A stretch of DNA of 64,000 nt from a virus (Duplodnaviria > Caudoviricetes). The notes beneath the pieces are model-generated. The model saw only the letters and a program-made list of their open reading frames with translations. It was not told where the DNA came from and did not search any database. The stretch is taken from the IMG/VR virus record IMGVR_UViG_3300035698_011757, positions 1,481 to 65,480 of that record. One strand, written 5' to 3'. Position numbers and translations under genes: made by a program. This document shows, in pieces, positions 2 through 823 of the stretch; position 1 is the stretch's first letter; each line of letters begins with the position of its first letter.

Positions 2-823
2 ACACCCTCATATAAAATAAGAAAACTAAACAGAGTAGAATGTGAAAGATTACAAACAGTACCAGAGACGAAAATAATAACAAAAATAGATATATGTGTA
101 GACCATCAAAATAAAACTGTAGATGTGGAAACGTCAAATCGCAAGTCGCTAAAGTATGCTGGGGATGCCGATCTAGACAATTACAGTCCAACTGCGAAAT
201 ATGCGGAGAATCATTTAAAGCAAAAAGGTCAAAAAATAAAAAAACCTGTTCAAAAGAGTGTGATTATAAACCTAGGGGACGAAAAACAGCTATATCAAAT
301 TTTAAAGGAGTTTGTAAAAAATGCGAAAGGTGCGAAAAAGAATTTAAGCTACCCCAATGCGATTAAGAAAGAAGATTTTGTAGCACTAGCTGTTTTCATG
401 CAGAAATGGTTGGAGAAAAAAGCTCTAGATGGAAAGTGGGACTTACAAAAGGGAGAAAGTATTTTAACTCAACAAGAGAATGGAAGGGTTGTGTTAAGTT
501 TGTCTGGAGGAGAGATTACGCCACCTGTCAAAAATGTAAAGAAAGATTCAATCATACTCAAAAAACTTTTGAAGTCCATCACATTAAGCCGTATTCCAGT
601 GGAGATAGACAGTCAGACGTATCAAATCTTATCTTGCTATGTTATAAATGTCATAATTGGGTGCATTCCAGAAAAAACGAAAGGAGTGAGTTTATATCAG
701 ATTAAGTTAATGGGTTTAGCGGAAAGTTACACAAAAGCAGTTAGTCAAAACCAAGCTATTAAAATGCTAGGAAACGGATGGACTGTTGACGTAATAGCTC
801 ACATATTTAAAGAATTAAAATAA
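2..823 (+). CDS. C5 cytosine DNA methyltransferase, 3' part (5' truncated by the window), with an in-frame insertion of about 210 codons
   Basis: Frame is open from base 2: RKLNRVECERLQTVPE ... SYTKAVSQNQAIKMLGNGWTVDVIAHIF; closely matches the C-terminus of the paralog at 44447-45403. Confidence 0.8.
   Translation, partial: TPSYKIRKLNRVECERLQTVPETKIITKIDICVDHQNKTVDVETSNRKSLKYAGDADLDNYSPTAKYAENHLKQKGQKIKKPVQKSVIINLGDEKQLYQILKEFVKNAKGAKKNLSYPNAIKKEDFVALAVFMQKWLEKKALDGKWDLQKGESILTQQENGRVVLSLSGGEITPPVKNVKKDSIILKKLLKSITLSRIPVEIDSQTYQILSCYVINVIIGCIPEKTKGVSLYQIKLMGLAESYTKAVSQNQAIKMLGNGWTVDVIAHIFKELK
94..705 (+). pseudogene. Zinc-finger/HNH endonuclease overprinted in an alternative frame of the methyltransferase; two internal TAA stops (112-114, 364-366)
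   Basis: Frame 1 reads CRCG..CWGC..CEICG..TCSKEC..CERCEKEF..FCSTSC then RDYATCQKC..EVHHIKPY..NLILLCYKCHNWVH. Confidence 0.8.

Follow-up and report, generated by a model that had tools for sequence, protein, structure and literature searches.

A probable hidden HNH homing-endonuclease cassette in a phage C5 cytosine methyltransferase gene, inserted between motifs IX and X

The ShiLan domain of mycobacteriophages is a 202-codon stop-free sequence inserted in frame in a DNA methylase (Gosselin et al., 2023, PMC9957025; Arsenault, Gosselin and Gogarten, 2025, PMC11855218). In these papers, a 195-amino acid (aa) zinc-finger and HNH gene is hidden in the third frame of the domain; signals of an intron or intein are lacking, the distribution is patchy and horizontally transferred, and the invaded gene also contains an intein. 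Another mycobacteriophage methylase with an out-of-frame HNH gene is reported in a genome announcement (PMC12613952). The layout is not new, being in print for mycobacteriophage methylases in 2023 and 2025. Described here is a locus of the same layout in a 64,000-nucleotide (nt) stretch of phage DNA, termed the window, which comprises bases 1481–65480 of the 65,480-bp IMG/VR record IMGVR_UViG_3300035698_011757. At the start of the window, a C5 cytosine methyltransferase (MTase) gene carries, in frame between its motifs IX and X, an insert of ~650 nt that is probably a ‘hidden’, out-of-frame HNH homing-endonuclease cassette.

After motif IX the invaded MTase continues for 219 codons that have no counterpart in other MTases, and then resumes with ESYTKAVSQNQAIKMLGNGW (motif X). 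An initial annotation, made from the letters of the window alone, had pointed to ERLQTVPE followed by about 210 extra stop-free codons, and the arrangement is present as it described. The paralogous MTase at 44447, when read directly, is contiguous at the insert site (EKLQTVPVDYTKL..MLGNGW), as had also been stated. The cassette is almost entirely a zinc-finger and HNH gene read in another frame. The features, with the evidence for them in brackets, are as follows.

2–67, plus strand: last section of the C5 MTase portion that precedes the insert, with motif IX, ECERLQTVPE, at 38–67 (open reading frame (ORF) list, Pfam, motif alignment).
68–724, plus strand: insert, in frame, 657 nt or 219 codons, with no stop in the MTase frame (comparison with relatives).
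94–705, plus strand: zinc-finger and HNH gene in frame 1, 203 codons, a pseudogene with two nonsense codons and a terminal TAA at 703–705 (gapless alignment, Pfam).
112–114, plus strand: first in-frame TAA of the HNH gene, aligned to a Glu conserved in relatives.
364–366, plus strand: second in-frame TAA of the HNH gene, within the second zinc-finger module.
406–705, plus strand: residual open ORF of 99 codons with the whole HNH core and zero zinc fingers (PF01844).
725–823, plus strand: downstream part of the MTase, SYTK..MLGNGW (motif X), with its stop TAA at 821–823 (ORF list, alignment).
44447–45403, plus strand: uninterrupted paralogous C5 MTase of 318 aa, given for context and lying outside the element (PF00145, E 1.4e-40).

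A Cys-rich zinc-finger and HNH protein with two TAA codons had been proposed for frame 1, and the Pfam match to PF01844 (HNH; E 8.6e-13 on the 99-aa part, 406–702) bears this out. The 99-aa ORF also matches 191 phage records by tblastn. The hidden protein consists of repeated CxxC..F..CSxxC zinc-finger (ZnF) modules and an HNH core, in the order ZnF-ZnF-HNH. With an X placed at both stops, it aligns end to end and without gaps with the intact 203-aa protein P0001 (51% identity), and it is 52% identical to the product of the intact gene of a related locus, L084; the zinc-ligand cysteines and HNH residues are all retained. The gene is a recent pseudogene, since the damage consists of two point nonsense changes with no indels. 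Recoding of TAA was dropped as an explanation: the six transfer RNAs (tRNAs) of the window include no suppressor, and TAA is also the stop codon of the MTase. The offset of the gene within the insert, (94-68) mod 3, is 2, and outside the gene the cassette has 26 nt before the ATG and ~19 nt after the stop. Among the sequencing runs listed, one public DNA run (X1, labelled salt lake metagenome) and no RNA run shares sequence with the locus (10% of words). A 151-nt contig of X1 is identical over 250–400, including the second TAA, the first TAA (112–114) lying outside its coverage; it is not independent confirmation of the second TAA because the sample is possibly the same.

The 1,480 bases of the record that precede the window were examined as L001. 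Window frame 2, that of the MTase, is open over 2–823 and back to the first bases of the contig, i.e. for 766 codons (L001:3–2303), and PF00145 matches this 766-aa reading with an E of 5.1e-15 (Pfam). The upstream portion of the gene, L001:3–1547, is interrupted by an intein. Motifs IV, VI, VIII, IX and X are kept (CQGFSF, ENV, QSRLRHYW, ECERLQTVP and GNGW). The E codon at 65–67 recurs at 722–724, which leaves the insert boundary uncertain by one codon. Both motifs that border the insert site were found in 76 of 80 related MTase loci from IMG/VR, the remaining four not being evaluable, and the two are contiguous in 76/76. In 73 of these a single D/E codon is common to both matches, and in three there are four more codons; QTVP(D/E) runs straight into xYT, i.e. 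the insert is absent.

Relatives of the hidden gene were obtained by scanning IMG/VR and JGI metagenome contigs with a three-protein HNH alignment, which returned 62 loci. A near-full-length relative was defined by 40% identity or more to the HNH protein of L084, which gave 39 loci with the window and L084 counted; several are the same contig in two collections, and 27 HNH genes are distinct. The +1 frame is open over the entire HNH gene in 38 of the 39, within an ORF of 269–881 codons, and the 39th locus, L107, is truncated by a contig end. None of the 24 more distant HNH loci has a +1 frame open across the gene. The spanning ORF is a C5 MTase in every case (PF00145 E 1.1e-81 and 1.8e-48 on two hosts, Pfam), and the cassette is always inserted after ECERLQGFP(E/D/Q) and before (G)(W/Y)T..RYK..GN(A/S/G). 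The initial annotation had taken the hidden gene for a homing-type HNH gene that overprints an open host frame, and had suggested that homologous MTases with and without the insert be compared for dual open frames; the same layout at the same site in 38/39 loci, mostly with an intact HNH gene, gives that reading much firmer support.

The HNH gene is intact in 25 of the 27 distinct genes, the broken ones being those of the window and of L113. A free-standing gene serves as a control: L092:413–1153 encodes an intact 246-aa HNH relative (52% identity over the core), with a helicase-like gene on one side and an N6/N4 methylase gene on the other; its +1 frame is not open, the longest run there being 37 codons. 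GTDB genomes yielded one near-full-length HNH relative only, in a contig of a Bacteroidales metagenome-assembled genome. In cultured phages the best full-length matches reach ≤31% identity and are to free-standing halovirus HNH genes. Mycobacterium is absent from the ten genera listed for the phage tblastn matches of two family HNH proteins, for which 6 and 24 further names are unlisted.

The open host frame across the family is beyond chance. In the window, the third frame has 27 stops over 67–705, 24 of them within the HNH gene. The +1 frame of 213-codon blocks of the window's long ORFs contains 8–27 stops (mean 16.6, n = 54), and the longest +1 open run in the 15,612 codons of these ORFs is 78 codons. 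The probability that the MTase frame has no stop, an estimate that had been called for at the outset, is 6e-9 by base composition alone and 0.0023 under the strictest null, which is given the HNH amino-acid sequence and the codon usage of the window; a +1 stop is possible at only 11 of 212 codon junctions because the HNH protein calls for few Leu, Ile, Val and Met codons. The 27 distinct genes, on contigs of 29–69% G+C, have 0 stops in the +1 frame vs. 5–33 in the +2 frame. Stops in the MTase frame of homologues, which would have told against the proposal of an overprinted gene, are thus found in none of 27/27.

Comparison of the two readings of the same DNA points to different constraints. 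Over 300 pairs of 25 sequences, the mean identity is 0.49 for the HNH protein, 0.32 for the host-frame peptide and 0.35 for the MTase flanks. A null for the host-frame peptide was generated by resampling synonymous HNH codons with +1 stops forbidden; this test covered 22 of the 25 sequences and 231 pairs, with L106, L113 and L122 omitted as near-duplicates or broken. The larger host-frame excess over the null in closer pairs is explained by shared ancestry. The nuclease frame is thus strongly conserved, whereas the host frame is clearly under selection to remain open and, apart from that, is constrained at most weakly. The host-frame insert peptide has no Pfam match at E≤0.1, no tblastn match in 50,697 phage records, and no match at E≤0.01 among proteins of 421–1341 aa, the only lengths searched. 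The notion that it forms a real domain was dropped in view of the missing homologue, low model confidence and conservation barely above the synonymous-resampling null.

An AlphaFold2 model was made of the complete invaded MTase of L084 (L084:4922–6712, 596 aa, 25-row alignment). The catalytic domain has a predicted local distance difference test score (pLDDT) of ~80–96, motif IX has 78 and the motif X helices 82–88, and the insert has ~20–50, with strands only at the insert ends, 345–362 and 555–564. The prediction fits the published picture of the ShiLan domain, a ‘loop or hairpin held away from the enzyme’, and is no proof of disorder.

The cassette appears to be mobile, in that it is more conserved than, and incongruent with, the host methylases. 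The HNH proteins of L088 and L106 are 97% identical vs. 50% for their MTase flanks; those of L121 and L122 are 98% identical vs. 58%. The correlation between HNH identity and flank identity is 0.45. A separate observation concerns run X1, in which a 2,064-nt contig matches 36–66 (motif IX) with one mismatch and then continues directly with ..DNYTK..; it reads as a related MTase with an empty site.

The proposed mode of life of the cassette can be outlined as follows. Translation of the MTase would run straight through the insert and leave ~219 extra residues as a loop of little structure in the hinge that precedes motif X; thanks to this read-through, the element would do no harm even though neither RNA nor protein is spliced. 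The nuclease would be produced by internal initiation at its own conserved ATG and would cut MTase alleles that lack the insert, close to the conserved sequence coding for motif IX, after which repair may copy the cassette into the cut allele, i.e. homing. In the window, the nuclease gene has died recently via two nonsense codons, and the MTase frame is still open.

Several observations weigh against this reading. In the 67 most divergent pairs, the identity of the host-frame peptide is 0.232 vs. 0.186 for the null (mean z 2.0), and a designed ‘benign loop’ is weakly supported because the peptide is only slightly above the null. The probability of finding no +1 stop, given the protein and local codon usage, ranges from 5e-6 to 0.22 across the 27 genes, and these values are not to be multiplied because the genes are related. 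Most family members lack an evident Shine-Dalgarno sequence ahead of the HNH ATG. MTase motifs I–III lie beyond the contig start, and the integrity of the enzyme is only partly checkable. The same genome has a second, uninterrupted MTase paralog, so that the invaded copy might be dispensable. Lastly, one-step routes to a stop number 133 in the HNH frame vs. 110 in the host frame, and both hits fall in the HNH frame with P ~0.30 under neutrality; two HNH-frame stops vs. none in the host frame are therefore not significant in the window.

The last point bears on the suggestion in the initial annotation of a host frame preserved by selection while the nuclease decayed, which the window alone does not establish. 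A second decayed cassette supports it. L113:3000–4739 has five stops in the HNH frame, and its MTase frame is open for 580 codons and in register. In addition, 25 residues of HNH text, 84% identical to the HNH protein of L102, are now read in the MTase frame of L113, and therefore two compensating frameshifts occurred. Maintenance of the host frame during decay of the nuclease is plausible for the window by itself and is backed by L113.

A more elaborate form of the hypothesis is that the element is co-adapted in both frames: the strand-forming ends of the host-frame peptide would pair and push a loop of ~200 residues out of the MTase hinge, with selection acting on both frames. This is possible but doubtful. 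If true, homing genes would have a third general means, in addition to introns and inteins, of residing within essential sequence; the ~200-codon same-strand overlap, held from 29% to 69% G+C, would be among the longest conserved phage overlaps known; and the family would offer a natural model for dual-coding maintenance. A related idea, a zinc ‘clasp’ made of cysteine pairs at the loop ends, was rejected, as the family alignment A2 shows no conserved pairs. A single Cys or Trp is common close to the 5′ end, and the overlapping ATG forces it.

Other explanations of the locus start from its possible inactivity or from removal of the insert. The cassette might be a dead passenger in a dispensable gene, whose stop-free state was selected in other genomes and is merely inherited here, with neither frame now under selection. 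The uninterrupted paralog, the broken nuclease, the neutral expectation for the two nonsense hits and the N-terminus lost from the contig are all in keeping with such a history. It is nevertheless unlikely, given that the MTase frame is open for 766 codons and passes through a canonical intein C-terminal junction, that the five motifs are kept, that there are zero indels in 203 HNH codons relative to intact relatives, and that the host frame of L113 survived two frameshifts by compensation. Far less probable is the removal of the insert from the mRNA by an unrecognized self-splicing or host-dependent intron, which would make the open host frame incidental. Phage HNH genes are, as general knowledge has it, often intron-borne, but the insert has no Rfam intron match at E≤10, and a group I or group II intron was rejected for this reason and for the short flanks of the HNH gene. 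The cassettes of relatives likewise have only tens of nt flanking the gene, and therefore no room for a ribozyme. Nor would an intron call for 27/27 copies without stops in the exon frame, or for lengths divisible by three, and the authors of PMC11855218 detected no signal of an intron in the analogous element.

As improbable as an intron is a non-canonical intein, or clipping of the host-frame peptide by a protease, either of which would leave a mature MTase without the insert. Strand-like stretches with alternating hydrophobic residues occur at both insert ends, and out-of-frame endonuclease genes inside true inteins are recorded in two preprints (bioRxiv 10.1101/2025.01.02.630785; 10.64898/2026.09.14.751524). 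The model confidence for the insert strands is low, however, and the residues at the junctions do not fit an intein. The insert starts with Thr rather than Cys or Ser, and its first position is variable in relatives; it ends in ..LAE without His-Asn, and the residue that follows is mostly Gly in relatives and Ser in the window. Pfam finds no intein in the insert, though it detected the true intein upstream in the same protein. The initial annotation had seen neither intron nor intein, and Rfam, Pfam and junction residues are all negative. It had also read a second motif-IX-like copy at the 3′ edge (KLMGLAE), and this part did not hold up: the resemblance is weak, the host-frame text of relatives at that place is unrelated, and BLASTP merely drags the KLMGLAE stretch into the motif X alignment. 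A free-standing homing endonuclease gene that splits its host was rejected as well, the host ORF being single and continuous.

The splicing domain of the upstream intein is matched in Pfam at E 9.5e-8, just under the curated cut-off, and LAGLIDADG-like motifs can be read by eye. The intein (L001:3–899) has lost its N-terminus at the contig start; it ends in ..VVHN and is followed by CQGFSFCGK, so that its insertion point directly precedes the catalytic Cys of PCQ. Similar intein-bearing cytosine MTases are found in ~350-kb Escherichia phages (99% coverage, 30–33% identity). The two MTases of the window are 38–45% identical as proteins, yet the last 64 nt of the paralog are 88% identical to 761–824; the similar 3′ ends could be a gene-conversion tract, possibly repair-associated. 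A short purine motif, (A/C)GAAA, recurs towards the 5′ end of the cassette and precedes the HNH ATG by 20–33 nt in the window (~68–73), L084, L087, L090, L112 and others, with the form ACGAAA in five members that range from 34% to 69% G+C. It is not a Shine-Dalgarno sequence because it is too far from the ATG, and it could be part of the element end or of the nuclease's site. In three distant HNH genes (~30% identity; L123:1961–2557, L125:1118–1717 and L126:439–924), the 3′ part lies under +1 open runs of 162–200 codons, which may be another nested arrangement with a different geometry. Six tRNA genes (Thr, Arg, Glu, Gly, Ile and Val) are clustered at 4426–7994 of the window.

No description of a C5-MTase motif IX/X family was found in the literature searched, and the wider survey ‘in other phages and prokaryotes’ of PMC11855218 may already include C5 cases. 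Novelty is reduced because the layout of a hidden HNH gene in a methylase has already been published. The window's element is a member of a further, widespread lineage of such elements in uncultured phages, with its nuclease already dead. The hidden, splicing-free HNH lifestyle is thus not limited to a few mycobacteriophages, and has a separate lineage at one fixed C5 MTase site. The 27 diverged copies are strong comparative evidence for a host frame kept open by selection, the published cases being nearly identical to each other, which speaks for actual translation of the host protein across the element. Read-through by the MTase thus appears well supported, and it is easily testable.

The window and L113 add a late stage to the proposed life cycle, in which the nuclease is dead and the insert is still read through. 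The host must keep reading through the insert because loss would need a precise deletion. MTases of this kind should be annotated neither merely as one odd long protein nor as pseudogenes, and the second frame is worth checking.

Other phage genes invaded by HNH genes differ in the fate of the host frame. Aeh1 mobE in nrdA, and T4 mobA with the gene 60 bypass, are free-standing homing endonuclease genes that split host genes. They resemble the window's element in that an HNH-type homing gene occupies a conserved phage gene with neither intron nor intein; they differ in that the host is split into two ORFs or depends on ribosomal bypass, whereas the host frame in the window is continuous. In Mycobacterium phage Thibault (L147, NC_023738.1:61538–63339), a C5-type MTase is annotated in pieces (gp102, gp105) that surround a 205-aa HNH gene (gp103) and a small ORF, which appears to be a split-gene arrangement and not read-through. 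The MTase of phage Minnie (L148) is a helicase and N6/N4 methylase with an intein.

Actinophage inteins (bioRxiv 10.1101/2025.01.02.630785) and a cyanobacterial dnaX intein (bioRxiv 10.64898/2026.09.14.751524) likewise have an endonuclease out of frame (frame 3) in a stop-free stretch. They differ in that the host-frame sequence splices itself out, while the insert in the window has no detectable splicing domain. Closer to the present case is Pacc40 gp60, where a nuclease-like ORF of 160 aa lies out of frame in an in-frame, stop-free methylase insert (PMC11855218); its HNH assignment is rated less certain by the authors. Pacc40 gp60 is a helicase and N6/N4 methylase, and both the site and the ORF family are other than those of the window.

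The ShiLan domain itself offers the closest parallel. In the ShiLan genome (NC_041988.1, accession from a table in PMC10453261), a Pfam match to PF01555 identifies gp65 as an N6/N4 methylase, and the hidden HNH gene is at L149:4516–5103, with an offset, (4516-2786) mod 3 = 2, equal to that of the window's element. Both elements are in-frame inserts of ~200 codons at a conserved methylase site, with no host-frame stop, no intron or intein signature and a low-confidence predicted host-frame structure; both have a disjunct distribution among divergent methylases and an intein in the same gene (gp65 in ShiLan). The hosts differ, being an N6/N4 methylase (PF01555) in ShiLan and a C5 methylase in the window, as do the module order (ZnF-HNH-ZnF vs. 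ZnF-ZnF-HNH), the HNH subtypes and the sources, which are cultured Mycobacterium phages for ShiLan and uncultured phage contigs of 29–69% G+C for the window's family. One zinc-finger module aligns between the two (31% over 64 residues) and the HNH cores do not, so that homology to the ShiLan sequence family was rejected beyond that module. With a shared layout but no homology of the cores, the window's element is therefore of the same kind as ShiLan but not of the same sequence family.

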